NCBI GenBank assembly: GCA_964499695.1
Contig: CAZCMD010000003.1
Span: 12,842-76,841 of the forward strand
Reading direction: 5' to 3'
Length of the DNA: 64,000 nucleotides
DNA from: an uncultured Desulfatiglans sp.
GTDB taxonomy: Bacteria > Desulfobacterota > DSM-4660 > Desulfatiglandales > HGW-15
Both the position numbers and the translations under genes were made by a program. Below, in pieces: positions 10,590-27,984 of this stretch. Below the pieces are notes generated by a model, which saw nothing but the letters and a program-made list of their open reading frames with translations, searched no databases and was not told the origin of the DNA. Within the stretch, counting starts at the first letter, position 1. Each line of letters opens with the position of its first letter.

Positions 10590-10641
10590 ACAAAGACTGT
10601 CAATTAATAAAAAGATCAACAACTAAATCAAGGAGGGGAAG

Positions 10642-12207: not shown

Positions 12208-12240
12208 TGACCTGTTCTATTTGCTAAAGGGAGGCAAAAA

Positions 12241-13482
12241 ATGAAAATGAAAATTAGAAAACAAGTAATATTAGCCGGTCTTTCAGGTTTACTGCTTGCA
12301 TTGTGCCTGAGCTTTATTGTTCCTGCCCAGGAAAGCATGCCCCAACCCGGTACAACAATAGATAAGAATAATTATTCACAATATAAAGATTTTTTTCCGG
12401 ATTTTTTTCATGAGGCATTTACAACAGGTTGGGAGATGGTAGAGCCCCTGAAGATAACTATTCAGGCCACATCATCAAACCCTGTGCCCAAACCCTTCCT
12501 GGAGGCCACTGCCAAAAATAAGGGTAAGTATTCCATTGATTCCTCCGGATATATAGCAGGAGGCGATTATAAGGATATTGTGGGATTTCCATTTCCTGAT
12601 TTGAACCCTGATGACAAGGATTTTGCAGTCAAATTTATGTGGAATTTCGATTACCGGTATAAACTGGATGATATGTATGCCATGTTTTTGAATTATGAAA
12701 AGAGGAAGGGTGAACCAACGGTCCTGTCAACTGTAGAATCATGGCAGGTATCATTCCAGAATAGAATGTTCGAGGATCCAAAACCCCTGTACCAGACAGC
12801 CAATGGCCTGAGGTCTGTGAACTTCCTTAGAAATGTCTCCCCGCCTGTTCAGAAAAATTTCATGACACTGCTCATAAGGTATATAGACCAGAAGGAGCCA
12901 GACGCCACTTTCCTTTACCTGCCGAGCATGAGACGGACATTAAGGGGAGAGGCCGGAGAAAGATCAACCCCGATCCAGTCATCCACTCAGGCACCTGATG
13001 ATTTCGAAGGAGGGTTCAATGGCCGTATCCCGGAATTCAAATACAACTATCTGGGCGAGAAAAAAATAATCGTTCTGGCAGATGCCAAACTTGGTTTCAA
13101 GGATGTGAAGGATTCCCATTCCAATATGATCCCTGTAGAAAACAAAGGGTGGGAAGTAAAGGATGTCTATATTTTTGAAATAACCCCGAAAGATCCCAAG
13201 TATCCCCATGGGAAGAAGGTTATTTATATAGACAGGGAAAACTACTGGCCCTACTACTGCGCAGGCTGGGATCGTGCAGGCGCCCTGTGGAAGGTATGGC
13301 AGACAGCTATAACAAAACAGGCTAATGCCAAAGGCGAAGCCTTCCCCTATTTCAAGGGTATGCTGGGGGTGGATGTTCAGCTCGGTTACGCTGTCAACAT
13401 GTTTACGGACTGGCAGGCCAATGGAAATAATTTAAAAGAGTCAGATGTCTCTGTTTCTTCCATGCGCAGAAGGGCAAGGTAG
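12241..13482 (+). CDS. DUF1329-family (LolA-like) periplasmic protein
   Basis: Signal peptide; size and position immediately after DUF1302 as in the conserved pair. The family call is from pattern memory only. Confidence 0.65.
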   Translation: MKMKIRKQVILAGLSGLLLALCLSFIVPAQESMPQPGTTIDKNNYSQYKDFFPDFFHEAFTTGWEMVEPLKITIQATSSNPVPKPFLEATAKNKGKYSIDSSGYIAGGDYKDIVGFPFPDLNPDDKDFAVKFMWNFDYRYKLDDMYAMFLNYEKRKGEPTVLSTVESWQVSFQNRMFEDPKPLYQTANGLRSVNFLRNVSPPVQKNFMTLLIRYIDQKEPDATFLYLPSMRRTLRGEAGERSTPIQSSTQAPDDFEGGFNGRIPEFKYNYLGEKKIIVLADAKLGFKDVKDSHSNMIPVENKGWEVKDVYIFEITPKDPKYPHGKKVIYIDRENYWPYYCAGWDRAGALWKVWQTAITKQANAKGEAFPYFKGMLGVDVQLGYAVNMFTDWQANGNNLKESDVSVSSMRRRAR

Positions 13483-13604
13483 CTTTTTATAATTGTAATT
13501 TTTTTCGCTTCACCCTCCCCGTTCCCCCGATCTCATGATGGATGGGGCGGTGAGGGTGTTAACAAGCATACAGAAATTATGCTGTAGTTTGAGATGGATA
13601 TATA

Positions 13605-14633
13605 ATGACCAGAAGAGAAAATGCCCTTATTGCCTATCATCATGGGGTGCCGGCATTCATACCTGCATTATTTACGGATATCTCTATCTTACAGGCCAGG
13701 CCGCAAATGGAACGTTATTGCGGTCTTGATTCGGGTCTTGATGAGTTCGGTATTGATTGGACCTATGTACCGCAGGCAAGGGCACCAATGCCCACCGCAG
13801 GAAAAATAATGTTTGAGGATATTAATGACTGGAAAAACCATGTAAAGTTTCCGGACCTGGAGGCTGTTGACTGGGAAAAACAGGCGAATATCGATGTCCA
13901 TACGGATTTTATGGCATTGGTCGCTGGCGCCGGTATTGTTCCAAGGGCCGACGGGAAAAGTGCATATGATGAAGAGAAACTGGTTTTATGCATGGTCATC
14001 AATGGACCTTTTGAACGTTTACACGCCATGATGGGATTTGAAAATGCGCTGATGGCCCTGGCCTCTGATCCGGATGAATGTTATGCCTATTTCAAAGCGA
14101 TTGCTGACTGGAAGATAGAGTATTTTAAGAAAATTGTTAGATATTATAAAGTAGATGTTATTAATGCACATGATGATTATGGAGCTGCAGATCGTATGTT
14201 CATGGCACCGGATACCTGGAGAAAACTTATCAAACCTCATTTAAAGAGAATGGTTGATGCGTGCCATGAGGCAGGAGTGATGTATCAACACCACAGTTGC
14301 GGTCACATTGAACCGATTTTTAAAGATTTTGTTGAGATTGGCGTTGATGCAATTGATCCCCTGCAGGCAGGAAGTAATAAAAACCTTGGTGAACTGAAGT
14401 TAATATTTGGAGATAAGATTACATTTTGCGGTGGTTTTGACAATCAGAAGGTTTTGGAAAAACCCGGGGTAACTTCAGAGGAAATCAAGACAGAATACCG
14501 CAGGGCAATTGATACCCTGGCGCCGGGGGGAAGTTATGTAGCATTTCCAATTACCATAGGGTTTGATTTTGTAGGGCCGTTTCTGGAAGAACATTTTCAA
14601 TATGGCATGGGATTTTATGCAAATCAACAGTAG
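13605..14633 (+). CDS. uroporphyrinogen-decarboxylase (URO-D) family protein, MtaA/CmuA-like methyltransferase type
   Basis: 342 aa with an N-terminal 'RENALIAYHHG' and a C-terminal 'HSCGHIEPIF..F.E.GVDAIDPLQ' pattern typical of URO-D-fold cobalamin-dependent methyltransferases. Confidence 0.65.
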   Translation: MTRRENALIAYHHGVPAFIPALFTDISILQARPQMERYCGLDSGLDEFGIDWTYVPQARAPMPTAGKIMFEDINDWKNHVKFPDLEAVDWEKQANIDVHTDFMALVAGAGIVPRADGKSAYDEEKLVLCMVINGPFERLHAMMGFENALMALASDPDECYAYFKAIADWKIEYFKKIVRYYKVDVINAHDDYGAADRMFMAPDTWRKLIKPHLKRMVDACHEAGVMYQHHSCGHIEPIFKDFVEIGVDAIDPLQAGSNKNLGELKLIFGDKITFCGGFDNQKVLEKPGVTSEEIKTEYRRAIDTLAPGGSYVAFPITIGFDFVGPFLEEHFQYGMGFYANQQ

Positions 14634-14720
14634 AAAATTACAGAACGAATCAACAATACCGGCAAACCTTGCAGGGATGCTGGCCGTGATCAATTATTAA
14701 GAATAAATGGAGATATTATT

Positions 14721-15644
14721 ATGGGAAAAGTTATAATTACAGCAGCTCTTACGGGAGCTATCCACACGCCATCCATGTCGGAATATCTTCCGTTCAGGAT
14801 AGAAGATATGGTTGAAGAGGCGGTCAGGTCATATAATGCAGGCGCAGCCGTAGTACATGTACATGCAAGAAATCCGGAAAACGGTATACCCTCTTCCAGT
14901 GTTGAGATATTCAGGGAGATATTAAGCCGTATAAAGGCTGAATGCAATGCGGTTATTACACCTACAACAGGAGGGAGTTATACAATGACTCCAAAGGAAA
15001 GGCTGGCTGTGGTAAGCGCCCTCAAGCCTGAAATGGCCACATTCAACGCAGGTTCTCTGAATTTTGCATTGTACCCGGTTCTGGAAAAGTACAGGGAATT
15101 CAAATATGACTGGGAGGAAGGCTATCTGAAGGGTACAGAGAGCTTTATCTTTTCCAACCATTTTGAATCGTTACATATCTATTCAAAGACAATGAATGAG
15201 ACAGGCACAAGGCCTGAAATAGAGATATATGATGTGGGGCAGATAAATAATGTAGCCCAGCTCTTAAGAGAAGGATACCTGAAGAAACCTGTATATCTCC
15301 AGTATGTTATGGGCATCCTGGGCGGCATTCCCGCAACTGCTGACAACCTTCTGTATCTGATAAGGGAGTCAAAAAGATTACTTAAGGAAGATTTCATATG
15401 GTCTGTCTGTGCAGCAGGAAAATTCCAGTTTTCCATGGGTGTCATCAATGTACTTGAAGGGGGTTTCTGGAGGGTTGGGCTGGAAGACAACCTTTACATA
15501 GAGAAAGGCGTGCTTGCTAAAAGTAGCGCTGAACAGGTTGAGAAGGCGATCCGTATTATTCGTGAACTCGGGTATGAACCTGCAACGCCTGATGAGGCCA
15601 GGGAGATATTGGGATTAAAAGGGATTGGAAAGGTAGAATACTGA
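14721..15644 (+). CDS. BKACE-family beta-keto acid cleavage enzyme (DUF849, Kce-like); candidate triacetate acetoacetate-lyase
   Basis: KVIITAALTGAIHTP and AAVVHVHARNPENG (His-x-His zinc site) are hallmark BKACE motifs. Confidence 0.8.
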   Translation: MGKVIITAALTGAIHTPSMSEYLPFRIEDMVEEAVRSYNAGAAVVHVHARNPENGIPSSSVEIFREILSRIKAECNAVITPTTGGSYTMTPKERLAVVSALKPEMATFNAGSLNFALYPVLEKYREFKYDWEEGYLKGTESFIFSNHFESLHIYSKTMNETGTRPEIEIYDVGQINNVAQLLREGYLKKPVYLQYVMGILGGIPATADNLLYLIRESKRLLKEDFIWSVCAAGKFQFSMGVINVLEGGFWRVGLEDNLYIEKGVLAKSSAEQVEKAIRIIRELGYEPATPDEAREILGLKGIGKVEY

Positions 15645-15646
15645 AG

Positions 15647-15768
15647 AAGGGTTCAAGGGCCCAAGGGTTCAAGGGAAAAGGTCCGGCACATGGCTCAAGG
15701 TGCAGGGCGCAGGGAAAGATAAAAAAGATGACATTACTGTAGGGGCAGGCCTGCGTGCCTGCCCGCAG
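15647..15768. repeat. intergenic tandem 13-mer (aagggttcaaggg x2) plus TGTAGGGGCA-type hairpin (gggcaggc-N6-gcctgccc)
   Basis: 13-mers at 15647-15659 and 15663-15675; 8-bp stem at about 15743-15764. Confidence 0.5.
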
Positions 15769-15820
15769 ATGATTGTACAGTATAAGAGGCACAGGGCAAC
15801 TACTTAATAGAAAGGAGAAA

Positions 15821-16609
15821 ATGATGAAAAAGGGTGATGAATTGTTAAAGGATCTTTTTGATATATCGGGAAAGGTGGCCATTGTTACAGGTGCAACCGG
15901 GGGTTTTGGGAGTGTAATAAGTATGGCACTTGCTATGGCAGGTGCAAAGGTCATGGCCACAGGACGTGGTGAGGATAAACTTAAATCGCTTGTAGAAAAG
16001 ATAAAAAAGGAAGGCGGGGTCGCATCTTTTACAGCAGGATCTCCTGTAAATCATGATGATGTAAAGAGGGTAGTAAAGGAAACAGTTAACACCTTCGGGA
16101 GGGTGGACATTCTTATTACTGCGGCCGGTACGAGTAAACCTGCTCCGATTATTGAACAGCCCCTTGAAGAATGGGAAATGATAATGGATACCAATGTAAA
16201 AGGTACTTACCTGTTCTGCAAGGAAGCAGGAAAGGTGATGATTGAACAGGGTAAGGGCGGAAAGGTTGTCCTTTTGGGTTCAGCAAGGGGTGATCTGGGT
16301 ATGGCCAATTACTCCGGTTACAGTACTTCAAAGGGAGCTGTCCATCTTCTTGCAAAGACCCTAGGTTGTGAATGGGGGCAGTACGGAATAAATGTAAATG
16401 CCATAGCGCCCACTGTTTTCAGAACAGCTTTGACCCAGTGGATGTTTGATGACAATGCATTCTACAAGAATTTTTTAAAACGGATTCCAATAGGCAGGCT
16501 TGGAGAACCGGAAGATTTTATCGGCATAGTGATATACCTTTGTTCAAAGGCCTCGGATTTTATAACGGGAGCTATTATACATACTGACGGCGGTTATGCT
16601 GCCGGATAA
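15821..16609 (+). CDS. short-chain dehydrogenase/reductase; candidate phloroglucinol reductase
   Basis: ORF 15773..16609, start moved to ATG 15821 (AAAGGAGAAA-ATG). TGATGGFGS cofactor motif and YSTSK catalytic motif. Confidence 0.85.
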   Translation: MMKKGDELLKDLFDISGKVAIVTGATGGFGSVISMALAMAGAKVMATGRGEDKLKSLVEKIKKEGGVASFTAGSPVNHDDVKRVVKETVNTFGRVDILITAAGTSKPAPIIEQPLEEWEMIMDTNVKGTYLFCKEAGKVMIEQGKGGKVVLLGSARGDLGMANYSGYSTSKGAVHLLAKTLGCEWGQYGINVNAIAPTVFRTALTQWMFDDNAFYKNFLKRIPIGRLGEPEDFIGIVIYLCSKASDFITGAIIHTDGGYAAG

Positions 16610-16629
16610 CCTCATTTTAGAAAAAATAG

Positions 16630-16709
16630 CTGTAGGGGCACAGCGCACTGTGCCCTCTCGGTCACATTGCATTATGCCAGAACGGGCACGCTGCGGCGTG
16701 CCCCTACAG
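16630..16709. repeat. TGTAGGGGCA-type double-hairpin REP-like element
   Basis: ctgtaggggcacag-cgca-ctgtgccc ... gggcacgc-tgcg-gcgtgcccctacag, with terminal ctgtag/ctacag complementarity. Confidence 0.5.
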
Positions 16710-16776
16710 TTAAATAACAATGTGATTTTGACCAGGATAACAATTTTTATAAACATGACATAAAAGGTGCTGCAGG

Positions 16777-17718
16777 ATGTCTGAAATAATGAAAATAACC
16801 GTTATTGGCGCCGGCCTTATGGGGCATGGCATTGCGCAGGTTTTTGCTCAAAATGGATACCCGGTTACATTGATGGATTTAAATGAGGAGTTTCTTGCCA
16901 ATGCGGCAAAAAATATCCGGGCAAATCTGACTTTAATGGCCGAAAATGGTATCGGCTCTTATAATGATATTGATTCGATAATTTCCAGGATAAAATTTAC
17001 TATGGAGATGTCTGAGGCAGTATCCGAAGCAGATTTTGTGGTTGAGGCCGTTTCAGAAAATCTTGACCTGAAACAGAATATATTCCAGAAACTGGATTCC
17101 CTGTGCCGGCGGGAAACAATACTTGCCACAAATACCTCTGTTATAAGCATTACGGAAATAGCTTCGAAATCAATATACCGTGACAGGATCGTTGGTACCC
17201 ACTTCTGGAACCCGCCATACCTGATCCCGCTGGTTGAGGTAGTCCGTGGAAAGGATACATCAGATGGAACAATGGATAAGACTTTTTCTCTGCTCCAATC
17301 TGTGGGGAAGCATCCTGTCCGTGTAAATAAAGACGTTCCCGGGTTTGTAGCCAATCGTTTACAGCATGCACTCTGGCGTGAAGCCATCTCAATTGTCGAG
17401 AAAGGTATCGCTGATGCAGCAACGGTTGATGAATGTGTAAAATACGGGTTCGGTTTAAGGCTGCCGGTCCTTGCTCCTATGGAAAATGCTGACATGGTCG
17501 GGACAGATCTTACACTTGCCATTCATGATTATATCCTGAAACACCTTGAGAGTTCGCCTGAACCATCTCCTCTATTGAGGAAACTGGTTGAGGAAAAAAG
17601 TCTTGGGTTTAAGTCCGGTAAGGGATTTCAGGAATGGCCTGAGAATAAAGCCAACGAGTCAAGAAAGAGGCTCCGGAAATACCTGATGGGAGTAATAAAA
17701 GAGGGAGTTAAAGCATAA
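16777..17718 (+). CDS. 3-hydroxyacyl-CoA-dehydrogenase-fold NAD-dependent dehydrogenase
   Basis: ITVIGAGLMGHGIAQVFA Rossmann motif and HFWNPP motif typical of the Hbd/FadB-N/L-carnitine dehydrogenase family. Confidence 0.85.
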   Translation: MSEIMKITVIGAGLMGHGIAQVFAQNGYPVTLMDLNEEFLANAAKNIRANLTLMAENGIGSYNDIDSIISRIKFTMEMSEAVSEADFVVEAVSENLDLKQNIFQKLDSLCRRETILATNTSVISITEIASKSIYRDRIVGTHFWNPPYLIPLVEVVRGKDTSDGTMDKTFSLLQSVGKHPVRVNKDVPGFVANRLQHALWREAISIVEKGIADAATVDECVKYGFGLRLPVLAPMENADMVGTDLTLAIHDYILKHLESSPEPSPLLRKLVEEKSLGFKSGKGFQEWPENKANESRKRLRKYLMGVIKEGVKA

Positions 17719-18962
17719 TGACAATTATGTATCCAAGGTACCGCTGGTTTACGCTGATTACAATCATAGCTGCCCATTTACTTCAGGGAATGGCCCTGAT
17801 CGGCCCAACGCCGCTGGTGGGATCAATAGCTGAATCTCTGAATCTTAATCTTGGTGCAGCAACTGCAGCTTCTATGCTGCCTTTCACGCTGATGGTTGCA
17901 ATAGGCGGACTCATAAGCGGTATGGTAATTGACCGGTGGGGACTCGCAAAAACATATGTCCTGTTCTGTTCGCTGGAGACAATTGCAGCGCTGCTCCTTC
18001 CTGCACTTGGCACCTCTGCGGCGGGGCTGGCTGTTATTCGAGGGCTTCAGGGTCTTGGATGCGGGCCTATTACCGCATCAGGCCCTAAAATGGCATCGGA
18101 ATGGTTTCCCCGCACTCAAAGGTCAATGGTTCAGGGCGTCACAGGTGCATCTCTTTCTATGGGTATTATCGTTGGCCTTAATATCGGTCCTGTCATCGCA
18201 CAAACAAGAAACTGGAATACTGCGCTTACAGTGCTGGGAGGCCTTATGATTATTGCTGTCATATTAAGCACAATTTTTATTTTTGGTCCGGAATCGCCCG
18301 GATCAATAGAGGATCAGGCCCCAAAAGAGCGTGTGTCAAAGGACTTTAAAAAGGTGTTCGGCCTGCCGGCCTTCTGGATGACATTCCTGTCCACGTTTAC
18401 ACTTGCATGGGTAATGCAGGGGTACCAGGATCTGACACCGGGGCACATAGCGGTTTCTCCGCCGGTCGGCCTTGGACTTGGAAGCATAATATCCGGACAA
18501 ATGATGGCGCTGCTTGTGTTCGCCTTTGTACTGGGATCACTTTCCACACCGGTTATTGCAGAGAAGATCTTCAGGGGTAAATATGGCAGGGCAATTACAG
18601 TAAGTTTTTGCCTTACCGCCTTTTTCTGCATCTCGGTAATGTGCCCTCTCGTTAAATCAAGTATACCTCTCTTAATAATATGCCTTTTTCTCGCCGGATT
18701 CTTCATGGGTATGCCTATGGCAACCGGCATGTCATTTATCGCCAACAATTACCCTGAACACATTACCGGCAGCGTGGGAGGGTTCACAATGGGGCTTGGT
18801 ATTTTCGGCGGTGCAATAGGAGTTGCAGCCGGATCAACAGCCCTGCATATTACCGGGATGTATAATGTATCTATAATTATCGTCGGCGTGGTTGCCGTGA
18901 TTGGTGCGATCGCAGGTTTTGGAATAAAACAGGTAAATATATTTGATGAAAACCCGGAGTAA
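17718..18962 (+). CDS. MFS transporter
   Basis: About 12 hydrophobic segments. The start overlaps the upstream stop (TAATG), suggesting translational coupling. Confidence 0.8.
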   Translation: MTIMYPRYRWFTLITIIAAHLLQGMALIGPTPLVGSIAESLNLNLGAATAASMLPFTLMVAIGGLISGMVIDRWGLAKTYVLFCSLETIAALLLPALGTSAAGLAVIRGLQGLGCGPITASGPKMASEWFPRTQRSMVQGVTGASLSMGIIVGLNIGPVIAQTRNWNTALTVLGGLMIIAVILSTIFIFGPESPGSIEDQAPKERVSKDFKKVFGLPAFWMTFLSTFTLAWVMQGYQDLTPGHIAVSPPVGLGLGSIISGQMMALLVFAFVLGSLSTPVIAEKIFRGKYGRAITVSFCLTAFFCISVMCPLVKSSIPLLIICLFLAGFFMGMPMATGMSFIANNYPEHITGSVGGFTMGLGIFGGAIGVAAGSTALHITGMYNVSIIIVGVVAVIGAIAGFGIKQVNIFDENPE

Positions 18963-18966
18963 CAGT

Positions 18967-19587
18967 ATGACAATGAACAGAATTGAGACTGAAGACGCAA
19001 TGAGGCTGGAATGGAAACTTGAGGGAGTTACCCCCAGAATGATTGACTGGTTCTGGTCAAACATGGAGAAATGCATGCTACTCTGGCATCCATCTCAGCA
19101 TGAACCTCTTGAATGGGCAAAGGCCCCTCTTCATGGAAACCCGATTAATTCCATTCATATTGCCCCGCAGACATGGAGAGACGGGACAAGGCAAAATCTC
19201 TACATCCAGATGGTTGATATCGCAACACTTCCTGAGCGGTTCAACAAATACATAAGACATGAACATGTAGCCATGGTCGCAGGCATAGGACTGGGAGAAG
19301 AAGCCCTTAAAAACCCTGTGATTATGGGATACCGCATACACCAGTGGTCAAAGGCAGATTGGGGCGTGGACGGTGAATCGGTTGCAATAGGTATAAAAAA
19401 GAAGGAAGACCATGAAGCCAAAATGACATGGGCGGCCCATTGTGAAGAAGAGATTTCGAACTGGGAGGTTTTTTTACCCGCCCTGTATAATTTATATAAA
19501 GTGGTTACCAATACTGACTACAACCCCTATGCCGATTTGACAGTTGAAAAGAAGGGGGATAAATTTCAGTACAAATATATTAAATAA
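18967..19587 (+). CDS. PhlG/phloretin-hydrolase-like (DAPG-hydrolase domain) protein, copy 1
   Basis: ORF 18943..19587, start moved to ATG 18967 after GGAG. GVTPRMIDWFW...LWHPSQH and AAHCEEE (H-x3-E) resemble, as I recall them, the PhlG Zn-site motifs. Paralogous to 24856-25509. Confidence 0.45.
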   Translation: MTMNRIETEDAMRLEWKLEGVTPRMIDWFWSNMEKCMLLWHPSQHEPLEWAKAPLHGNPINSIHIAPQTWRDGTRQNLYIQMVDIATLPERFNKYIRHEHVAMVAGIGLGEEALKNPVIMGYRIHQWSKADWGVDGESVAIGIKKKEDHEAKMTWAAHCEEEISNWEVFLPALYNLYKVVTNTDYNPYADLTVEKKGDKFQYKYIK

Positions 19588-19742
19588 TGTTCATCCAAAA
19601 ACTGATGTTTTTGTTTGAAAGCGGTCAGCTATCAGCGTTCAGCTTTCAGCAAAAGGCATATAAAATAAAGTTTTAGCTGACAGCTGATAGCTGAGTGCTG
19701 ACAGCTCAATCTAAAATTGATATATATAGATTGACACCAATT
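19584..19742 (+). repeat. MITE-like CAGC-rich repeat, copy A (degenerate ends)
   Basis: tcatccaaaaa...gcggtcagctatcagcgttcagctttcagcaaaagg...gctgacagctgatagctga aligns with the copies at 53737 and 56851(rc). The right end gacaccaatt resembles the TIR gacactaatta. Confidence 0.6.
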
Positions 19743-19776
19743 CATAGAACAGTGAACAAATAAAACGGAGCATGCC

Positions 19777-20616
19777 ATGTCAGTGGAATTCCAGCCAATG
19801 AGAAGTCTTATATACGTGGATGTGGTAAAGGAAGATTACAGACACAAACTTAAGCACTGGCTGCATCGATATCATATAGCAGACAGTATTTCTCAGTTTG
19901 GGCCATATGTAACAAAATATGCCTTTTACCCTGCCTTGCCCACCCCACCGGAAGGTGAAAGGTTCGGTACTGTCAGGATGCAGCTCACAGAGCACTACTG
20001 GCTGATAAGCCCGTTTCAGAATGACCTTAAGGTCAAAACCATCACAGAATATATGCCAGCGGATACATTGAAATGGCAGGGCATGATACCTGATACAGAT
20101 GAGCAGTTGAGCGAGAACATGGACGGTGATACCCATAGATCTTCAGGTGGTAAAGATGATTTACCCCCGTTCATTTTTGCCTTTGTACCGGTCTGTTGGG
20201 AGGAGGACTTCAAGGGGAAGGAAAGAACCGTTGAAGATGGCCCCAATTATCGCTGGCAGTTAGTACTCAGGTACCCTGACGGTATCTCTAAAGAAGAAGG
20301 AGATGGCTGGCTATATAAAGAGGTGATTCCTGTATTCGCTGAAATGCCTGAGGTGACAAGGCTCCTGACAAGCAGGATTAAGCAGGAAGTAAACAGTTGC
20401 CCTTATAATAGAGTCGTTGAAATGTGGTTTGACGGACCCAGTTCATGGTACAGGGCAGCAGTAGTAAAATCAGCATCAATAAAAAAACCTGGCTGGGCAA
20501 AGTATGAAAAATTCCCATATTTAAAACCCAGGTTTGAGATATCGAGCATTTTTTTAACCGACATCGCAGAAATAGATAATCTGACCCAGTACAGGGGCTA
20601 CTATACAATGAGATAG
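19777..20616 (+). CDS. conserved protein, candidate bacterial-type chalcone isomerase
   Basis: 279 aa with no signal peptide. Size and position (between the Phy-like and enoate-reductase genes) match the Eubacterium ramulus CHI system. The sequence-level call is from memory only. Confidence 0.4.
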   Translation: MSVEFQPMRSLIYVDVVKEDYRHKLKHWLHRYHIADSISQFGPYVTKYAFYPALPTPPEGERFGTVRMQLTEHYWLISPFQNDLKVKTITEYMPADTLKWQGMIPDTDEQLSENMDGDTHRSSGGKDDLPPFIFAFVPVCWEEDFKGKERTVEDGPNYRWQLVLRYPDGISKEEGDGWLYKEVIPVFAEMPEVTRLLTSRIKQEVNSCPYNRVVEMWFDGPSSWYRAAVVKSASIKKPGWAKYEKFPYLKPRFEISSIFLTDIAEIDNLTQYRGYYTMR

Positions 20617-20650
20617 TATATATAAAACATTACACCAGGAGTTATTAAAA

Positions 20651-21583
20651 ATGAAAATTCTCGGAATATCATCCGGATCAAAAAACGGTAATAATGATGC
20701 AATGTGCAAAGAAGCCCTCATGGGGGCAAAGGAGATGGGCGCAGATATTGAATTTATCAACCTGCATAACCTGGATTTAAAATACTGCACAGGCTGCGTC
20801 AGCTGCGTTATATCCCTGTTTTCAGGTAAAGGTAACCGCTGTGTCTTAAAGGATGATTTTGAGTGGCTCTTAGATAAGATGCTGGAGGCAGACGGTATTG
20901 TCTTTGCCACGCCGGTATTCGTAAAAGGTACCCCAGGTATTATACACACCCTGATAGATCGTTTTGGCCCGAGAATGGACAGAGGTAATAATATAATTGC
21001 AACGAAGATAGCCAAAGAAAAGGGCGGTAAGATCCCTGACATAAGAATACTGAAAGATAAAGTCGTTTCCTATATGGGGATAGGAGGTTCAGACTGGACA
21101 ACAAGAATACAGTGTGATCATGGCCTTCAGGCATTGACCCCCATGTGGAAGGTCATTGATAACGAGGTCTTTTCATGGTCCAAAGGAATTGTCATGGAAG
21201 ACGAAAAAGTAGCAAGGGTCCATATGATAGGCATTAATCTGGCAAAGGCAGCAAAAGATATCTCTTCTGCAGCCTATCTTGGTGAACCGGGAGTATGTCC
21301 TCACTGTCACAGCCGGAACTTTTTTTTAAATGACAGCGCATCCGAAGCCATTTGCTGTCTTTGCGGCATTAAGGGTGAGATAAAGGTCATTGATGGTAAA
21401 ATCTCCTTTGAATTCCCGGAGGAACAATTGAAGCACGCCCATGACACCCTTTCAGGAAAGATGATCCATGCAGGGGACATACAAAATAATGAAAGTAAAA
21501 ATATGGAGCAGATGAAAACAGGGGAATTCAAGGCCAGGATAAATAAATACAAAGAATTTATTTCTGCCAGTATGCCTGAATAA
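20651..21583 (+). CDS. Isf-like iron-sulfur flavoprotein (flavodoxin-like fold) with C-terminal Cys4 ribbon
   Basis: MKILGISSGSKNGN, a C-x2-C-x2-C-x11-C cluster motif (CTGCVSC...C), ADGIVFATPVF, and a C-terminal CPHC...CCLC. Confidence 0.65.
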   Translation: MKILGISSGSKNGNNDAMCKEALMGAKEMGADIEFINLHNLDLKYCTGCVSCVISLFSGKGNRCVLKDDFEWLLDKMLEADGIVFATPVFVKGTPGIIHTLIDRFGPRMDRGNNIIATKIAKEKGGKIPDIRILKDKVVSYMGIGGSDWTTRIQCDHGLQALTPMWKVIDNEVFSWSKGIVMEDEKVARVHMIGINLAKAAKDISSAAYLGEPGVCPHCHSRNFFLNDSASEAICCLCGIKGEIKVIDGKISFEFPEEQLKHAHDTLSGKMIHAGDIQNNESKNMEQMKTGEFKARINKYKEFISASMPE

Positions 21584-21670
21584 AACACCGGATGTCGGCT
21601 TTGATATGGAACGTTTCAAGCCGCCTTATGCGGGTACACTGGTTGCCGCAATGGTTCGGCCAATAATAGC

Positions 21671-21718
21671 GTAGACAAGACATGTTTACCCGCCGTTATT
21701 CTGGCGGGCCTTGTCTAC
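21671..21718. other. nested intergenic hairpin upstream of the enoate reductase gene
   Basis: Outer stem gtagacaag/cttgtctac and inner stem cccgcc/ggcggg, ending 40 nt before ATG 21758. Confidence 0.4.
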
Positions 21719-21757
21719 ATGGGATATAAACCTTTCCAATATAATTTGAGTTTTATT

Positions 21758-23740
21758 ATGGGAAAATTTGATCATCTTTTTTCACCTTTAAAGGTAGGAA
21801 GCTTCACGTATAAGAACAGAATCGAAAGCGCACCCATGGCATTCGCGCTGATTGCCTGTAACCCTGAAGCTGCTGACAAGTCATTCAGAAAACTGGAGGC
21901 GCCAGCCCGGGGCGGGTACGCCTGTGTTGCTGTAGGTGAACTTGATGTAAACTTCAGGGATGCCATAAGGATACCGCTGCCAGAAGTGGATTTTACTCAA
22001 ACCAATGGTTACGTGGTTGAAAAGGTTGGTGAATACGCGAAACGAATAAAAAGGCATGGTGCAATAGCTATATGCGAGCTTATGCATGCAGGAGCTGAAA
22101 AGGTACCGCTCGGGCCGGGTCAGGAGACTATAGGTCCAAATGATGAAGTCCGTCCAAATGGGATGAAAGTGCGCGCTATGACTATTGAGGACATGGAACG
22201 CATCACAGGAGATTTCGTTACATGTGCCAGGTTTGCTAGTAACTGCGGCTATGACGGTGTTCTGATTCATGGAGGACACGGGTTTCTTTTTACACAGTTT
22301 TTATCCACAGCATATAACAAAAGAACTGATAAGTACGGCGGGAGCCTGGAAAACCGCGTGCGATTTCCCATAATGATTTTAAAGGCAATAAGGGAAGCAA
22401 TGGGCCCGGATTTTCTCATTGAACTTCGTGTCAGTGCTGCTGACGGTTATGGAGGGATTACCCCTCACGAAACCGGTAAGTTTGTTGCCATGCTGGATGG
22501 AATTATTGACTCGGTCCAGATATCAAGCGGCATCTATTATGATGCTGTTGTAACCAAACAGTTTTCCTCCATGTATGTTGAGCACGGTTATAATGCGGAG
22601 CTTTCTGCAATAGTAAAAAAATATACAAAACTTCCTGTAGGTGTTGTTGGAGGAATCAATTCACCTGAGCAGATGGAAGAAATAATTGCTGAAGGAAAGG
22701 CTGACTACGTTGTACTGGGAAGACAATCTTTAGCTGACCCCGAGATAGCAAATAAGGCAAAAGAGGGGAAAGAGGACCTTATAAGACGCTGCATCAGGTG
22801 TTTTAAATGTTTTCCCGGGTCTCCGGAAGAGGGGTATAAAGATCTGCCCTATAACAGCATGGAACTGGCGAAAATTGTGGGGTACTGCACGATAAATCCA
22901 CTCGCCAACCTTCCCTTTGATCCATATGAGCTGAAACCTCCTGAGGTTTTTAAAAAAGTACTTATTATCGGCGGAGGCCCGGCAGGAATGCAGGCGGCCA
23001 TTACTGCCTCTAACAGGGGTCACAAGGTTGTACTGGCAGAAAAAGGAGACAGGCTGGGAGGGATGTTATTCTTTAGCGACCAGGAACAGGACAAGATTGA
23101 TCTGATGAATTTTAAAAATGTACTTATAAGGGAGGTAAATAACAGGGAGATTGAAGTACTTCTCAATACAAAGGCCGATGCAAATTTAATCACCCTGATC
23201 AAACCTGGTCACATCATTATTGCAACCGGGTCAGAACCGGTAACACCTGAAATCCCGGGGATAGAGCATGCCCATCAATCTTTGGATGTATATAGAGGAA
23301 ATATAATCTGCGGTAAAAAAGTTATTATGATCGGCGGCGGCCTGATCGGCTCGGAACAGGGCCTGCATCTGGCAAAGAGCGGACATAATGTCACCATTGT
23401 GGAGATGCTTCCGCGTATTGCTGATGAATCCTACGGCATGTATCGTGAAGCCCTGGTACTGGAAATTGCCAAAAAGGATATCCATGTTATGGAAAACACA
23501 AAATGTCTGGAGATAGGCAGGAACTATGTAAAAGTTCTATTACCTGATGGAGGGGAGAAGTGTCTTGATGCAGATACCATTTTATACGCTTTAGGAATGA
23601 AATCATCTCTCTTTGACGATATAAAAACTGCGGCCGGAGATGTTCCTGTAGAGGTAATAGGTGACGCCATAAAGCCTGGCAAGGTCGACCAGGCAATAAG
23701 CAGCGCCTATTATGCAGCTATCCATATAGGAAAGGTTTAA
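21758..23740 (+). CDS. Fe-S flavoenzyme of the 2-enoate reductase / 2,4-dienoyl-CoA reductase family (OYE TIM barrel + FAD/NAD(P) domain)
   Basis: ORF 21719..23740, start moved to ATG 21758 (MGKFDHLFSPLKVG...). VLIHGGHGFLFTQFLS is the OYE motif, CIRCFKC is the 4Fe-4S motif, and VLIIGGGPAGMQAA and VIMIGGGLIGSE are dinucleotide motifs. Confidence 0.8.
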   Translation: MGKFDHLFSPLKVGSFTYKNRIESAPMAFALIACNPEAADKSFRKLEAPARGGYACVAVGELDVNFRDAIRIPLPEVDFTQTNGYVVEKVGEYAKRIKRHGAIAICELMHAGAEKVPLGPGQETIGPNDEVRPNGMKVRAMTIEDMERITGDFVTCARFASNCGYDGVLIHGGHGFLFTQFLSTAYNKRTDKYGGSLENRVRFPIMILKAIREAMGPDFLIELRVSAADGYGGITPHETGKFVAMLDGIIDSVQISSGIYYDAVVTKQFSSMYVEHGYNAELSAIVKKYTKLPVGVVGGINSPEQMEEIIAEGKADYVVLGRQSLADPEIANKAKEGKEDLIRRCIRCFKCFPGSPEEGYKDLPYNSMELAKIVGYCTINPLANLPFDPYELKPPEVFKKVLIIGGGPAGMQAAITASNRGHKVVLAEKGDRLGGMLFFSDQEQDKIDLMNFKNVLIREVNNREIEVLLNTKADANLITLIKPGHIIIATGSEPVTPEIPGIEHAHQSLDVYRGNIICGKKVIMIGGGLIGSEQGLHLAKSGHNVTIVEMLPRIADESYGMYREALVLEIAKKDIHVMENTKCLEIGRNYVKVLLPDGGEKCLDADTILYALGMKSSLFDDIKTAAGDVPVEVIGDAIKPGKVDQAISSAYYAAIHIGKV

Positions 23741-23778: not shown

Positions 23779-24417
23779 TTAATCTTTACGAAAAAGAAAT
23801 TTTGATACCCGCTCTACATGGGCTTTAATGCCTTTCTTTGAGAGGATATCCTCTTTAAGCAGCCTGTTCGTAATATCCTTTGTGGCAATTGGTGTTTCGA
23901 CTAATGCACGCGCATAGACAAGAAAACTGTCGTGATTAAAACCTTTAAAATACCCGCCTTTCTGCGCATTTTTAAAAACAGGTTCAACGATCGAATGAAG
24001 TTTTTTCTGTCTTTCTATAATATAATCCAGATGAGGGCTTGACCGGCTGTTATCATGCAGGAGGATCTTGGATAACTCCGGGTTTTTGGCTATTGTCGAT
24101 ATGTATGACTGTAAAAATTCCCTGAAAAGCTCAACAGGATCAACGGATTCGCGGGATTTTAAAATGCTTAATATATTGTTTTCCTGGATGTTCAGCCCGT
24201 AATCAACCACTGCCTTCCATAAATCTTCTTTTGAGCCGAAATGATGCCTTATAAGGCTGTGAGTGGTTCCTGCTATGGAAGCAATATCCCTTAATTTTGC
24301 ATTATGAAAACCTTCCTGCGCAAACACCTTAAGCGCGGCCTTAAGAACAGCCTCCTTTGTCTTTTCACTTACATCTCTGGGTTGTTTCCCCAGTTTTCTT
24401 TTAGTCCTGTTAATCAT
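23779..24417 (-). CDS. TetR-family transcriptional regulator (paralog 1)
   Basis: HTH region FAQEGFHNAKLRDIASIAGTTHSLIRHHFGSKEDL. Roughly 60% identical by eye to the 32638-33270 product. Confidence 0.9.
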   Translation of the reverse strand: MINRTKRKLGKQPRDVSEKTKEAVLKAALKVFAQEGFHNAKLRDIASIAGTTHSLIRHHFGSKEDLWKAVVDYGLNIQENNILSILKSRESVDPVELFREFLQSYISTIAKNPELSKILLHDNSRSSPHLDYIIERQKKLHSIVEPVFKNAQKGGYFKGFNHDSFLVYARALVETPIATKDITNRLLKEDILSKKGIKAHVERVSKFLFRKD

Positions 24418-24855: not shown

Positions 24856-25509
24856 ATGGAAAAATCAAAATATCCTGAGGGATGGATGGTAGTCGATCAC
24901 GTCATTCCGGGCGTTACCGTGGAGATGCTCGACTGGTGGTGGGTCAATATGGAAAAAGGGTATGAGTTATGGTGCCCTGATGAGCATAAGGGTTTCAGAT
25001 GGGAAAAAAAACCGCCAATGAATGGCCATATCGGTGCTGTACAGATCGCTACTGAAAGCATAGATTACAGCCCGGTAATGGATTTAAGGATCGAATGGGT
25101 TGATCCCAATATAGGCACCGATGAACAGAAGGCGTTCTGGACCTATGAACATCTTCTTACAGCAGGGACAACAGGCGAAATCCCCGGTACTAAACCCTTT
25201 GTCATGCTTTCACACCAGTGGGAAGCCATCCCTGGCGGATGCAAAATGCGATCCTGCATGCACGGATTCCCAAAACCGCCTCCCGGAAGCGGGCCGGCTC
25301 ATCCTCCAGCAGCAGCAATGCCTGAACATCCAACCGGGAAAAAGCCTACCGGAGGCGGATGGCCTGCCCATAATATAGCCGAGGCAGGTACATTCAAGAA
25401 TTTTCTTCCGGCGTTGTGGGGAATCTGGCAGGCAGTTACCGACCCTGCAATCAATCGCAAGGCCTCATTAAAGATTAAAAAAGAGGGCTCTCGTATAATT
25501 TATATCTAA
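24856..25509 (+). CDS. PhlG/phloretin-hydrolase-like protein, copy 2 (with Pro/Gly-rich insert)
   Basis: ORF 24811..25509 (TTG), start moved to ATG 24856 after AGGAGG. PGVTVEMLDWWWVNMEK..LWCPDEH and AHNIAE (H-x3-E). The low-complexity segment PKPPPGSGPAHPPAAAMPEHPTGKKPTGGG is absent from copy 1. Confidence 0.45.
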   Translation: MEKSKYPEGWMVVDHVIPGVTVEMLDWWWVNMEKGYELWCPDEHKGFRWEKKPPMNGHIGAVQIATESIDYSPVMDLRIEWVDPNIGTDEQKAFWTYEHLLTAGTTGEIPGTKPFVMLSHQWEAIPGGCKMRSCMHGFPKPPPGSGPAHPPAAAMPEHPTGKKPTGGGWPAHNIAEAGTFKNFLPALWGIWQAVTDPAINRKASLKIKKEGSRIIYI

Positions 25510-25523: not shown

Positions 25524-27479
25524 AAAAATGGATATACTGGAACTTAAATGGATTAAAGAAATAAAAATAGACATGGATGCATGCAAAGGATGCAAGTCAT
25601 GCATGAATGCATGTTTTGTTGATGTTATCCGCTGGGATGAGGTAAAGAAAAAACCGGTTATCGCATACCCTGAAGACTGTGTCTGGTGCCTTGCCTGTGA
25701 ATGTGCCTGTCCTGTAAAATGCATTAACATAATCCCGAATATCCCGGCACCATTACGGTCATCTTTCCAGCCGTAAAAAAGGAGAAACATAATGACTGAA
25801 TTAAATAACAATAGAGAATTACTTTCTGCCGATGTGTTGATAATAGGAGGCGGGATAGGCGGCCTTGCCTGCGCAATAAAAGTAAAAGAAAATAATCCTG
25901 AGTGCGATGTGCTGATTGTTGAGAAACAGACAACAGGCTATGCAGGTAAGGCAACAAAGATAGGCGGCATACTGGCCTTCCTGGGCCCCAATAATAACGC
26001 TGACAAGTTCATAGATTTTCAGGTGCACACATCAGGGCTTTTTCTGAATGATCAGGATTTGCTGGCAAAATATGTTAAAGATACATACAAGACTATTCAG
26101 CAGTTTTCCGAATGGGGCAATAAACTCGCCAAGACACCTGATGGCAACATGCTTTCCTTTCCTGCAATGTTCGCCCCGGAATATTCATCTACATTTATAG
26201 ATATAGACTTGATGCTGCCCATGCGTGCCAAAGCCAAAAAAATGGGGACAAGGATAATAGATAAGGTTCATGTTGTTGATCTTTTATCCCTGGATAATCG
26301 TGTAGTTGGAGCAGCCGGTTTTAATATTATTGACGGTCATTTTATAGTTATCAGTGCAAAGGCCACCATACTGGCTAACGGAAGCTGTGGTTACAAGGTA
26401 AGGCGTTTCTGGTCAGCCGGTACAGGCGATGGTATAGCAGCAGCCTACAGGGCAGGTGCTGAAATGAGAAATGCCGAATATGGAAACCTCTACGGTCACA
26501 CGGTATTCCAGGCAACAGACAGCGGCATGGTGGGTTCTGATTTTTTAGTAAACAAGCAGGGTGAAAATCTGGCCCATAAATATATGCCTGACAGGGGGCC
26601 AGCAGGTGTATTTTTACCTGTTAAACTGGCTGTTGGTCTTGAAAAAGAGGTCGCTGAAGGAAGAGGCCCGATTTACTTTGAACCGCCAAAGTCAATGCCT
26701 CCGCACGGATTTTCTACCGGGCTTCCCAAGATTGAAGAATGGTTAAAAAGAATAGGAAATAAAGAGAAGGAATACGGGATATCAAGGGACTCAAAGCCAG
26801 AGATAGCAGTACCGTTACATGGTGAGACATCCTGTATAAAGGTTGATCATGACATGAAAACCAGTCTTGAAGGTCTATGGGCAATAGGAGATACAAGCTA
26901 CTCAGGTTCTGCACTTGCCGGTGCGGTTGCCTCACCTCCCGGTGTGTGTCCCGGTTCAGGGATCATGTTTGCTGTAATAAGCGCGGGATGGGCAGGTGCC
27001 TCAGCTGCAGGCTATGTTTCAGGGGCATCTCCTGTTGATCTGAAAAACATTGATACGGATAAGATAAAGGACAGCCTATTTGCACCGATGAAGGATAAAA
27101 AAGATTTTTCACCCTGGGTAGCCATATCTGCACTGGGAAGCATTGCGGCCCCGATGAAATATAATCTCCGCAGGAGCGAAGACCGGCTTTCCGAGGCCAT
27201 CAGCATGATCGAAAGGTTAAAAGAAAAGTTGCCTGACCTCCATGCAAAAGACCCGCACTACCTGGGTAAATGCCATGAGGTAAGGTCTATGACTCTGTGT
27301 GCTGAACTCACCTTCAGGGCAGCCCTGATGAGGACTGAAAGCAGAGGCTTCCATTATAGAGAAGACTTCCCGGCTCAGGATGATAAGAACTGGCTCAAAT
27401 GGATAATCATAAAGAAGGAAAAAGAAAAGATGAAACTCTCAACTCAACCTATTCCTATTAACAATTATAAAATCAGGCC
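25524..27479 (+). repeat. 1,956-bp near-identical direct repeat, copy 1
   Basis: Matches 36394-38349 at a constant offset of 10,870. I found one mismatch (27464 A vs 38334 G). Products are identical and even the antisense spurious ORFs are identical. Confidence 0.95.
25528..25776 (+). CDS. 2x[4Fe-4S] ferredoxin-domain protein (AprB/small-subunit-like)
   Basis: 82 aa with CKGCKSCMNAC and CVWCLACECACP cluster motifs. Confidence 0.85.
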   Translation: MDILELKWIKEIKIDMDACKGCKSCMNACFVDVIRWDEVKKKPVIAYPEDCVWCLACECACPVKCINIIPNIPAPLRSSFQP

Positions 27480-27495
27480 TGCCGGTAACGTTTAA
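25792..27495 (+). CDS. FAD-dependent oxidoreductase of the fumarate reductase/succinate dehydrogenase/AprA flavoprotein superfamily
   Basis: VLIIGGGIGGLACA dinucleotide motif and the C-terminal RTESRGFHYREDFP signature shared by FrdA/SdhA/NadB/AprA. Confidence 0.8.
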   Translation: MTELNNNRELLSADVLIIGGGIGGLACAIKVKENNPECDVLIVEKQTTGYAGKATKIGGILAFLGPNNNADKFIDFQVHTSGLFLNDQDLLAKYVKDTYKTIQQFSEWGNKLAKTPDGNMLSFPAMFAPEYSSTFIDIDLMLPMRAKAKKMGTRIIDKVHVVDLLSLDNRVVGAAGFNIIDGHFIVISAKATILANGSCGYKVRRFWSAGTGDGIAAAYRAGAEMRNAEYGNLYGHTVFQATDSGMVGSDFLVNKQGENLAHKYMPDRGPAGVFLPVKLAVGLEKEVAEGRGPIYFEPPKSMPPHGFSTGLPKIEEWLKRIGNKEKEYGISRDSKPEIAVPLHGETSCIKVDHDMKTSLEGLWAIGDTSYSGSALAGAVASPPGVCPGSGIMFAVISAGWAGASAAGYVSGASPVDLKNIDTDKIKDSLFAPMKDKKDFSPWVAISALGSIAAPMKYNLRRSEDRLSEAISMIERLKEKLPDLHAKDPHYLGKCHEVRSMTLCAELTFRAALMRTESRGFHYREDFPAQDDKNWLKWIIIKKEKEKMKLSTQPIPINNYKIRPAGNV

Positions 27496-27594: not shown

Positions 27595-27984
27595 ATGAAG
27601 AGACAAATAATAATAAACGCTATTATCCTTGTATTATTTATTATATTGAGCGGATTTATAACAGCGAGCGCGCAAAACAAAGGTATTGCAGGTGAATGGG
27701 AAGCAGAATGGAATGCAGGAATCGGGATTATGACATGCCATTACACATTTAAAGTCGAAGGAAATGTGATTACCGGAAAAGTCAGCGCTGAGATGAATGG
27801 AACTGAAAGTGAAAGTGAAATAACGGAAGGAAAAATAGAGGGAGATACTATTACCTTTGCCTGGACTTTTGATAACACTGTGAAAATGGTTTATACCGGC
27901 AAAGTAAACGGAGATGAGATCAAATTCTCCCGTAAGCCAGGAAGATATGCGACTGAAGAAGCCGTGGCAACACGGGTTAAGTAA
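27595..27984 (+). CDS. small secreted protein of unknown function (paralog 1)
   Basis: Signal peptide ending ASAQ and a GGAGG RBS. About 50% identical by eye to the 38516-38923 product (shared GEW, YTFKV.G..VTGKV, SESEI..GKIEGD.ITF, GDEI). Confidence 0.6.
   Translation: MKRQIIINAIILVLFIILSGFITASAQNKGIAGEWEAEWNAGIGIMTCHYTFKVEGNVITGKVSAEMNGTESESEITEGKIEGDTITFAWTFDNTVKMVYTGKVNGDEIKFSRKPGRYATEEAVATRVK

Follow-up and report, generated by a model that had tools for sequence, protein, structure and literature searches.

A putative flavonoid and phloroglucinol catabolic island in an uncultured Desulfatiglandales-like bacterium

The enzymology of flavonoid and phloroglucinol breakdown on which this study draws has been described in several reports (PMC10470551, PMC7862272, PMC9694015, PMC11868195). 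In Zhou et al. 2023 (PMC10470551), phloroglucinol clusters are recorded for Gram-negative sulfate reducers and for Archaeoglobus, and the flavonoid genes of C. scatologenes are called 'similarly organised'. McGivern et al. 2021 (PMC8084988) inferred CHI, FCR and PHY in Holophaga and Sporomusales from wetland soil, and Meinert et al. 2021 list chalcone isomerases (CHIs) from Gram-negative strains. A search of the literature for flavonoid or phloroglucinol genes in Desulfobacterota or Desulfatiglans turned up no specific account. Here we analyse a gene block on a 64-kb stretch of DNA from an uncultured Desulfatiglans sp. (the window: positions 12,842 to 76,841 of contig CAZCMD010000003.1, assembly GCA_964499695.1). 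Judged from its sequence, the block is likely to be a flavonoid/phloroglucinol catabolic island that fuses two pathways known from Bacillota, carried by a Desulfatiglandales-like bacterium.

A preliminary description of the window had proposed that eight genes at 14721–23740 encode the route from flavanone through dihydrochalcone and phloroglucinol to acetoacetate. All eight open reading frames (ORFs) were recovered on the + strand with the positions and Pfam families it had assigned to them, and the one-block route is supported by the similarity of one product to bacterial CHI, by the best model for the BKACE and by the best solved relative of the SDR. The limits of the block did not hold. 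ORFs and Pfam matches show a co-directional + strand block from ~5764 to 23740, with related or accessory genes out to 27495, and the cyclohydrolase family that was said to be missing is present on the same strand, as a Cyclase-family gene at 6148–7107. Gene order is kept at 80–99% protein identity in five independent contigs of Desulfobacterota metagenome-assembled genomes (MAGs; L001–L005), so the arrangement exceeds chance. In L001, the closest relative with 92% nucleotide identity to the window, the order is Cyclase-BKACE-SDR-3HCDH-MFS-PhlG1-CHI-FLR-[Fdx-FrdA-like-Phy]-OYE-TetR-PhlG2, where Fdx is a ferredoxin. Two indels separate L001 from the window, which has a 7.6-kb BNR/MMPL/DUF1302/DUF1329/URO-D segment between the cyclase and BKACE genes and from which the 4.4-kb Fdx-FrdA-like-Phy segment is gone.

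Three adjacent genes would act on the flavonoid skeleton. The 279-aa protein encoded at 19777–20616 (+; Pfam Chalcone_N PF18232, 1.1e-55), suspected earlier to be a bacterial CHI, aligns end to end with the E. ramulus structure 4D06/3ZPH (residues 4–279 against 4–282; E 1.4e-96), with an identity of ~50% to this crystallised enzyme and 58% to a second E. ramulus homologue. Alignment to E. ramulus CHI shows that His33, Asp36, His73, Glu91 and Gln101 are kept and that Asp79 is replaced by Pro; His33, polarised through Asp36, is the catalytic residue (PMC9694015). Strong homology and conserved catalytic residues identify this protein as a CHI by predicted activity. The adjoining gene at 20651–21583 (+; Pfam FMN_red plus a Cys-rich tail), previously read as an Isf-like Fe-S flavoprotein, matches instead the F. 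plautii flavone/flavonol reductase (FLR), whose structure with chrysin is PDB 7D38 (PMC7862272). Residues 1–310 align with 1–308 of that protein (1.7e-143), C-terminal tail included, and 204 of 310 positions (66%) are identical. The residues whose mutation cripples FLR activity are all kept (G106, W149, H271 and I275, the last two being H273 and I277 in the window), and an FLR gene next to CHI is the arrangement found in most of 80 CHI loci. On the same two grounds of homology and catalytic residues we predict FLR activity for this protein, and the encoded route would then begin one step earlier than first proposed, at flavones and flavonols. Separately, E. ramulus strain 21 carries a second CHI homologue (L022, 6257–7087) that adjoins an FLR-type gene and is distinct from the crystallised CHI.

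The third gene, at 21758–23740 (+), encodes a reductase with OYE, [4Fe-4S] and FAD/NAD modules (Oxidored_FMN 2.2e-57, Pyr_redox_2 2.7e-29), and the CIRCFKC motif reported for it lies at residue 345. Its homologues are 660 aa long, which points to ATG at 21758 as the start. Identity to more than 100 Bacillota relatives is 60–71%, in the same range as for CHI and FLR. A 60% identical homologue in Catenibacillus (L084) directly follows an FLR-type gene, and another, in L086, follows a canonical DAPG_hydrolase gene. In Clostridium sp. CF012 a canonical Phy (phloretin hydrolase) gene is followed by an OYE gene, a pair resembling the fcr-phy unit of C. butyricum (PMC11868195). Fcr of E. ramulus was found neither within 6–10 kb of CHI in two E. 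ramulus loci nor among the 120 best OYE matches, and there is no solved structure of it. The criterion for Fcr in PMC11170127 is ≥~33% identity to E. ramulus Fcr AGS82961 over ≥80% of its length. Its architecture and its neighbouring genes make the window protein a candidate Fcr-type reductase.

The remaining enzymes correspond to the phloroglucinol pathway. The Cyclase-family gene at 6148–7107 (+; PF04199, 3.3e-31) is a candidate for dihydrophloroglucinol cyclohydrolase (DPGC). The N-terminus of its product reads ...EIPRW20PY22F, with Trp20 and Tyr22 as in CsDPGC, where they set that enzyme apart from isatin hydrolase (Zhou et al. 2023, PMC10470551), and its metal motif is HTGTHADAPRH at residue 49 (HxGTHxDxPxH). 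It is 84% identical to a C. nigeriense protein (L010) and 74% identical to an Emergencia protein (L060), and the genes for both adjoin SDR/3HCDH/BKACE/CHI homologues. In L001 the DPGC gene lies directly beside BKACE; in the window the two genes share a strand, and DPGC precedes BKACE by 7.6 kb. Strong homology and the conserved catalytic residues argue for DPGC as the predicted activity. The short-chain dehydrogenase/reductase (SDR) encoded at 15821–16609 (+) is a candidate phloroglucinol reductase (PGR). Its best PDB match is 5G4K/5G4L at 9.4e-76, a gap of 20 orders of magnitude to the next (6.7e-54). We take 5G4K to be a Clostridium sp. PGR, a name that the literature did not confirm and that is generic in the deposition. 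The SDR has Ser-Tyr-Lys and shares 54% identity with its counterpart in the C. nigeriense cluster and 51% with that in the Emergencia cluster; no NCBIfam PGR model matched it.

At 16777–17718 (+) lies the candidate for (S)-3-hydroxy-5-oxohexanoate dehydrogenase (TfD; 3HCDH_N 9.5e-65, 3HCDH 1.5e-22). Ser121, His142 and Asn193 of its product correspond to Ser122, His143 and Asn194 of CsTfD (PMC10470551), and it is 59% identical to the C. nigeriense cluster protein. The 307-aa BKACE encoded at 14721–15644 (+; PF05853, 2.8e-99) is a candidate triacetate (3,5-dioxohexanoate) acetoacetate-lyase (TAL). Its top NCBIfam model is NF053538 ('3,5-dioxohexanoate:acetyl-CoA acetone transferase') with 391 bits, against 270 for lysine Kce, and it matches PDB 3LOT at 1.2e-105. 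Membership of lysine- or carnitine-specific clades, named at the outset as a possible outcome for these two proteins, is contradicted by the BKACE scores and by the poor scores of the dehydrogenase on carnitine dehydrogenase models. Best hits and synteny together point to PGR, TfD and TAL as the functions of the SDR, 3HCDH and BKACE proteins. The gene for the MFS transporter at 17718–18962 (+; MFS_1, 1e-37) starts, as had been noted, within the stop of the dehydrogenase gene (TAATG), the junction reading GCATAATGAC, and the two are predicted to be translationally coupled. MFS genes also accompany such clusters in L087 and L088, and phloroglucinol clusters elsewhere (PMC10470551).

The proposed route combines these activities as follows. 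Substrate would cross the envelope through a DUF1302/DUF1329/BNR/RND-like module and the MFS carrier. FLR would reduce C2=C3 of flavones and flavonols to give flavanones and flavanonols; CHI would interconvert flavanone and chalcone and ring-contract flavanonols; and the OYE/Fe-S flavoprotein would open the C-ring reductively to the dihydrochalcone, from which a C–C hydrolase would yield phloroglucinol and phenylpropionate. PGR would then reduce phloroglucinol with NADPH, DPGC would open dihydrophloroglucinol to (S)-3-hydroxy-5-oxohexanoate, the 3HCDH-fold dehydrogenase would oxidise this to triacetate, and BKACE would convert triacetate and acetyl-CoA to acetoacetate and acetoacetyl-CoA.

The hydrolase step is where the window departs from its relatives. 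In L001 and L003–L005 a canonical Phy of ~280 aa is encoded between FLR and OYE (PF18089 1e-74 to 1e-81; PDB 5XE5 1e-48, 3HWP 5.5e-40), with the OYE orthologue directly after it; in the window OYE follows FLR. The FLR–OYE spacer retains a fossil of the canonical gene at 21590–21651 (+), whose 62 nt match part of the interior of L001 phy (15846–15907) at 82% identity. It reads TPDVGFDMERFK...GTLVAA in frame and encodes 20 residues that are 75–85% identical to Phy280 residues 166–185. From this scar, the canonical phy has evidently been deleted from the window locus. The fossil is common to the window and L002, and L001, the closest relative by CHI, keeps the whole gene; this distribution conflicts mildly with the CHI tree and may reflect recombination among relatives. 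The same spacer contains a 48-nt perfect nested hairpin at 21671–21718 (GTAGACAAG...CCCGCC-loop-GGCGGG...CTTGTCTAC), inside a 54-nt stretch missing from the L002 spacer. The hairpin may act as a terminator/attenuator or derive from the insertion of a small repeat element.

Two short proteins of the diacetylphloroglucinol (DAPG) hydrolase superfamily are encoded nearby. PhlG1 (18967–19587, +) is a divergent 206-aa member. It had been described as PhlG/phloretin-hydrolase-like with an H-x3-E motif; the motif is present at residues 158–162, and the protein is a short divergent paralogue, not a canonical Phy, with one ligand replaced. Its match to PF18089 is marginal (3.4e-5; 23.9 bits against a cutoff of 22.7), covers profile positions 178–223 only (the C-terminal 45 residues) and includes no stretch that is significant by itself. 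The PhlG1 family comprises 681 matches, uniformly ~206 aa long and all named 'hypothetical', a length that supports the start at 18967. H45, Q68, H158 and E162 are invariant in 121 sequences. Ligand positions were mapped through an alignment to 5XE5 (H123/E154/H259/E263) and profile-profile alignments, and we take the metal ligands of PhlG to be His/Glu/His/Glu. An AF2 model of PhlG1 (pLDDT 95) has a Bet v1/START-type fold, and Foldseek against the PDB places 5XE5 first (E 4.9e-7, TM 0.57), with 3HWP at TM 0.58 and generic Bet v1/START proteins scoring similarly.

PhlG2 (~217 aa; 24856–25509, +) is closer to the canonical enzymes, with a PF18089 match of 1.6e-15 (57.7 bits over positions 33–222; canonical neighbours score 248–271 bits). 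Its ORF was listed from TTG at 24811, and the length of its tight family (213–220 aa, without a named function) favours ATG at 24856. H59, E82, H187 and E191 are invariant, so that all four ligand positions are occupied as expected. PhlG1 and PhlG2 share 28% identity. By hhalign, PhlG1 matches PhlG2 at 99.6% and PhlG2 matches canonical Phy at 97%; PhlG1 against Phy reaches 24%. Alignment of either protein to Phy280 begins at about residue 76–83 of the canonical protein. Direct PDB sequence searches gave no match at all for PhlG1 and no Phy or PhlG match for PhlG2, and the tie to Phy was made through a profile of canonical Phy, profile-profile alignment and predicted structure. Neighbouring genes provide further information on PhlG1. 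In Caloramator it lies beside MFS-CHI-FLR, in L088 it closes a thiolase-BKACE-...-CoA-transferase operon, and in L089 it is flanked by URO-D and FLR-type genes, with DUF1329 adjoining. In 3 of 3 unbiased look-ups it stood beside CHI/FLR or TAL/thiolase/CoA-transferase genes. This context fits an enzyme linking flavonoid-derived compounds to phloroglucinol, and does not in itself define the substrate. With phy deleted, the hydrolase step would fall to PhlG2, with its full ligand set, to PhlG1, with its Gln, or to a gene elsewhere in the genome; our confidence in any one specific enzyme is low.

Several observations weigh against this reading of the block. Canonical phy is absent from the 64 kb apart from the 62-nt fossil, and PhlG1 carries an invariant Gln where the DAPG-hydrolase family has a Glu ligand and matches canonical Phy weakly (hhalign 24%, Pfam marginal, fold TM 0.57). 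For the OYE reductase, the best curated model is BaiCD (391 bits, with the cutoff at 825) and the best PDB match is 2-naphthoyl-CoA reductase (3.9e-58), which shows that the family has many specificities; one close homologue (L085) lacks flavonoid context. The BKACE score of 391 bits is below the NCBIfam equivalog cutoff of 430, and the protein is not orthologous to clostridial TAL, being 38–40% identical to the clostridial cluster BKACEs, which are ~275 aa long and score best on the Kce model. From this low identity and the different best model, it seems that another BKACE subfamily serves the TAL reaction here. The NADPH motif of the SDR is T-G-R-G, in place of T-G-R-S or T-G-R-N in the cluster homologues, with the Arg kept; the motif of PGR is TR(S/N) (PMC10470551). 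Within the 64-kb window we found no thiolase or CoA-transferase genes for the last steps and no route for the phenylpropionate product. Scanning for sigma-54 promoters (TGGCAC-N5-TTGCW, ≤2 mismatches) gave 26 matches against ~34 expected, none of them in the relevant spacers, so that sigma-54 control rests solely on the presence of an activator. Scans of the block for sigma-70 promoters and terminators did no better than on shuffled sequence, which leaves operon structure and boundaries unproven.

One alternative is a more limited function, in which the island works for phloroglucinol (PGR-DPGC-TfD-TAL) and, after loss of Fdx-FrdA-like-Phy, its flavonoid genes only transform flavones and flavanones. 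PhlG1 and PhlG2 would then act on other substrates, and phloroglucinol would come from other community members. The phy scar shared with L002 when close relatives retain the gene, and the Gln at the PhlG1 ligand position, are in keeping with this alternative, and the co-occurrence of PhlG1 with canonical Phy in L001 and L003–L005 implies that PhlG1 is not simply a substitute. However, CHI, FLR, OYE and PhlG1 are intact, keep their catalytic residues and are 80–95% identical to their relatives, which argues for continued selection, and PhlG2 with its full ligand set is retained just downstream. Several Bacillota CHI loci also have PhlG1 and no canonical Phy within 10 kb, and a phy gene may sit elsewhere in this genome. 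Partial breakdown is, on balance, rather unlikely.

We consider it very unlikely that the block instead targets non-flavonoid acylphloroglucinols or phlorotannin-type compounds (DAPG-like polyketides, algal or plant phloroglucinol derivatives), with CHI and FLR acting on other substrates. This would suit an environmental, non-gut lineage with two DAPG-hydrolase-superfamily proteins whose specificity is undefined, but CHI and FLR are ~50–66% identical to proven flavonoid enzymes with substrate-contacting residues kept, and it is CHI paired with FLR that marks out flavonoid loci in most of 80 genomes. It is scarcely credible that the block serves general metabolism of beta-keto acids, lysine or carnitine, or that the contig is a Bacillota fragment that was mis-binned or is chimeric: BKACE, SDR and 3HCDH are broad families and the similarity of the flavonoid genes to those of Bacillota is unusually high, but the BKACE and dehydrogenase model scores given above argue otherwise, the cluster is set among diderm genes (DUF1302/DUF1329, TonB, RND) at a uniform GC of 0.41–0.47, which makes mis-binning unlikely, and five Desulfobacterota contigs, including one of 4.1 Mb, carry it as well. 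The diderm context was correctly described at the outset: a TonB receptor (29868–32114), an AcrB-type RND protein (60795–63878) and a sigma-54 activator (3603–5651) are all present. That context is less out of the ordinary than the contrast then drawn with Gram-positive systems implied, as there are precedents in PMC10470551 and PMC8084988.

By CHI, the nearest loci are in Desulfatiglans, Desulfatiglandales and Desulfobacterales MAGs and in a Zodletone 'Deltaproteobacteria' bin (83–94% identity), and Bacillota CHIs come next at ≤72%; the related loci are environmental, from Zodletone spring and sediment MAGs. A neighbour-joining tree, computed without support values, groups the CHIs of Desulfobacterota in a single clade nested among those of Bacillota. 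Cross-phylum identities are 60–84% for CHI, FLR, OYE, PhlG1 and DPGC. Together, the tree and these identities point to horizontal acquisition, with Bacillota as the most likely source of the flavonoid genes. Enzymes of these kinds are known chiefly from gut clostridia.

Downstream of PhlG2 lie genes for an 82-aa 2x[4Fe-4S] ferredoxin (25528–25776, +; Pfam Fer4) and a 567-aa FrdA/AprA-like flavoprotein (25792–27495, +; FAD_binding_2 and Succ_DH_flav_C). This PhlG2-ferredoxin-FrdA-like triad recurs in three unrelated long contigs (L081, L082 and L083), once beside SDR and cyclase genes. The segment lost from the window is a paralogous module, Fdx (47–49% identical)-FrdA-like (39%)-Phy280, which is found in L001, L003–L005, L050 and L086; in L007, Fdx and FrdA-like genes accompany PhlG1. 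A unit of a DAPG-hydrolase-family protein, a ~80-aa ferredoxin and a flavoprotein thus occurs with all three hydrolase subfamilies, in Bacillota and Desulfobacterota. We found no description of the hydrolase plus ferredoxin/FrdA-like pairing in the literature. Tentatively, and with more doubt than conviction, we propose both that PhlG1 and PhlG2 are new C–C-cleaving flavonoid enzymes, not redundant phloretin hydrolases, and that the hydrolase-ferredoxin-flavoprotein unit is a hitherto unrecognised reduce-then-cleave module. Possible tasks of such a unit include reduction of the chalcone that CHI produces and the processing of auronols (alphitonin, maesopsin), whose cleavage to phloroglucinol and phenylacetates has been attributed to an 'unknown enzyme' (PMC12203004).

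Orthology between the FrdA-like gene of the window and the FrdA-like gene lost together with phy was also considered, and was rejected because an identity of only 39% marks the two as paralogues. A second ferredoxin and FrdA-like copy is present at 36394–38349 (+; 1,956 bp, 99.95% identical to 25524–27479). Each copy is followed by a gene for a diverged paralogue of a small signal-peptide protein (27595–27984 and ~38510–38900). The 1,956-bp repeat may go back to an older duplication that has recently undergone gene conversion, or it may be an artefact of assembly.

Within the 7.6-kb segment, a four-gene envelope transport module (BNR/Ycf48-like, MMPL/RND-like, DUF1302 and DUF1329; 7191–13482, +; Pfam) is shared with L002–L005 and absent from L001, where 48 bp (L001 5224–5273) stand for window 7107–14702. 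A DUF1329 gene is also found beside the PhlG1 and FLR-type genes of L089. The module would take up hydrophobic aromatic substrates across the outer membrane. Directly upstream of BKACE is a gene for a URO-D/MtaA-like protein (13605–14633, +; URO-D 2.4e-17), which matches NCBIfam MtaA/CmuA at 1e-16, below the cutoff, and PDB 4AY7 at 1.5e-5. It has an H-x-C...C motif (HSC at 230–232, Cys275) and is 88–91% conserved in L002, L003 and L005. Genes of the URO-D family also occur elsewhere, flanking PhlG1 in L089, close to PhlG2 in L082, and in the neighbourhood of CHI in L048 and L072. The protein was considered as the missing cyclohydrolase, which the genuine cyclase-family DPGC upstream ruled out. 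Possibly it takes part in methyl transfer from methoxylated flavonoids; there is no corrinoid protein gene near it.

The first gene of the block (5764–6096, +), which at first looked like non-coding spacer, encodes a 110-aa ABM-domain protein (ABM 1.4e-12) and lies between the cyclase gene and that of the sigma-54 enhancer-binding protein (EBP). The latter (3603–5651, −; Sigma54_activat 1.2e-70, PAS_9, HTH_8) contains PAS domains, is divergent from the block, and is 93% identical and in the same position in L001. A TetR-family regulator is encoded at 23779–24417 (−; TetR_N 8.1e-14) and is conserved at this position, with 91–94% identity in L001 and L002. From their position, the divergent sigma-54 activator and TetR may regulate the block. 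Sigma-54 EBPs also stand beside CHI or phloroglucinol genes in nine Bacillota loci (L006, L007, L008, L010, L012, L016, L039, L058 and L060), so that sigma-54 control may be an inherited feature of the cluster, not a trait of the diderm host.

Elsewhere in the window, a second co-directional block (39267–53717) stands behind a GntR/UTRA regulator. It encodes a 912-aa tannase/feruloyl-esterase with an extra N-terminal esterase domain, a GH3 glycosidase with PA14, an FGGY kinase, three further esterases, a MatC/CitMHS carrier, a SnoaL_4 protein and an aldose 1-epimerase, and has the look of a first stage of polyphenol use, handling tannins and glycosides. We count this plant-polyphenol theme (tannase, GH3, esterases) as support for the proposed island. 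At 28166–32114 (−), converging on the flavonoid block, are genes for the TonB-dependent receptor and then a 501-aa PF12831 FAD-dependent oxidoreductase with ~70 extra N-terminal residues.

If the assignment is correct, members of an order related to sulfate reducers could, in anoxic sediments, degrade flavones as far as acetoacetate/acetyl-CoA units. Such a capacity would bear on the 'enzyme latch' debate and the persistence of polyphenols without oxygen, and would tie plant polyphenol carbon to sulfate reduction. A whole gut-type pathway would also have passed from one phylum to another and then been adapted to a diderm envelope. The short PhlG-like families and their ferredoxin/flavoprotein partner are candidates for flavonoid-degradation steps that lack enzymes.

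Compared with known systems, the pathway itself is not new, and there are earlier reports both of phloroglucinol clusters in sulfate reducers that are Gram-negative and of CHI sets in diderms. The variant features are the diderm uptake module, the other BKACE subfamily, the loss of phy, and the two short PhlG-like paralogues with their ferredoxin/flavoprotein. The C. scatologenes cluster (PMC10470551) resembles the window block in four enzyme families, their chemistry, W20/Y22 and the Ser/His/Asn triad, and both have an MFS transporter and a regulator. In contrast to that cluster, the window has a 307-aa BKACE (NF053538/3LOT-like) in place of a ~275-aa Kce-like TAL, lacks thiolase and CoA-transferase genes, has its cyclase gene split from the other three by the 7.6-kb transport/URO-D insert, and joins its phloroglucinol genes to flavonoid genes on the same strand.

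The F. plautii and E. ramulus enzymes (PMC7862272, PMC9694015, PMC11868195) share the adjacent CHI-FLR genes and the Fcr architecture, and the window differs in its diderm host, the presence of flavonoid and phloroglucinol genes in one block and the deletion of canonical phy. Relative to Phy and PhlG (5XE5, 3HWP), PhlG1 and PhlG2 have W-x-P-x-x-H, the C-terminal H-x3-E and, by prediction, the Bet v1-like domain, but lack ~60–75 N-terminal residues and internal segments (206 and ~217 aa against 274–294 aa). The Holophaga and Sporomusales sets (PMC8084988) likewise come from environmental diderm anaerobes with C-ring cleavage genes, of different phyla. Merged flavonoid and phloroglucinol blocks were found in C. 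nigeriense (L010), C. caldaquaticum (L006), Emergencia (L060) and a Lachnospiraceae MAG. The first three are like the window in having SDR-cyclase-BKACE-3HCDH, PhlG1, FLR-type and CHI genes within ~10 kb, together with sigma-54 activators; they differ in having neither an outer-membrane module nor an OYE gene beside CHI, in their Kce-like BKACE, and in an FLR-type protein 39–41% identical to the window FLR.

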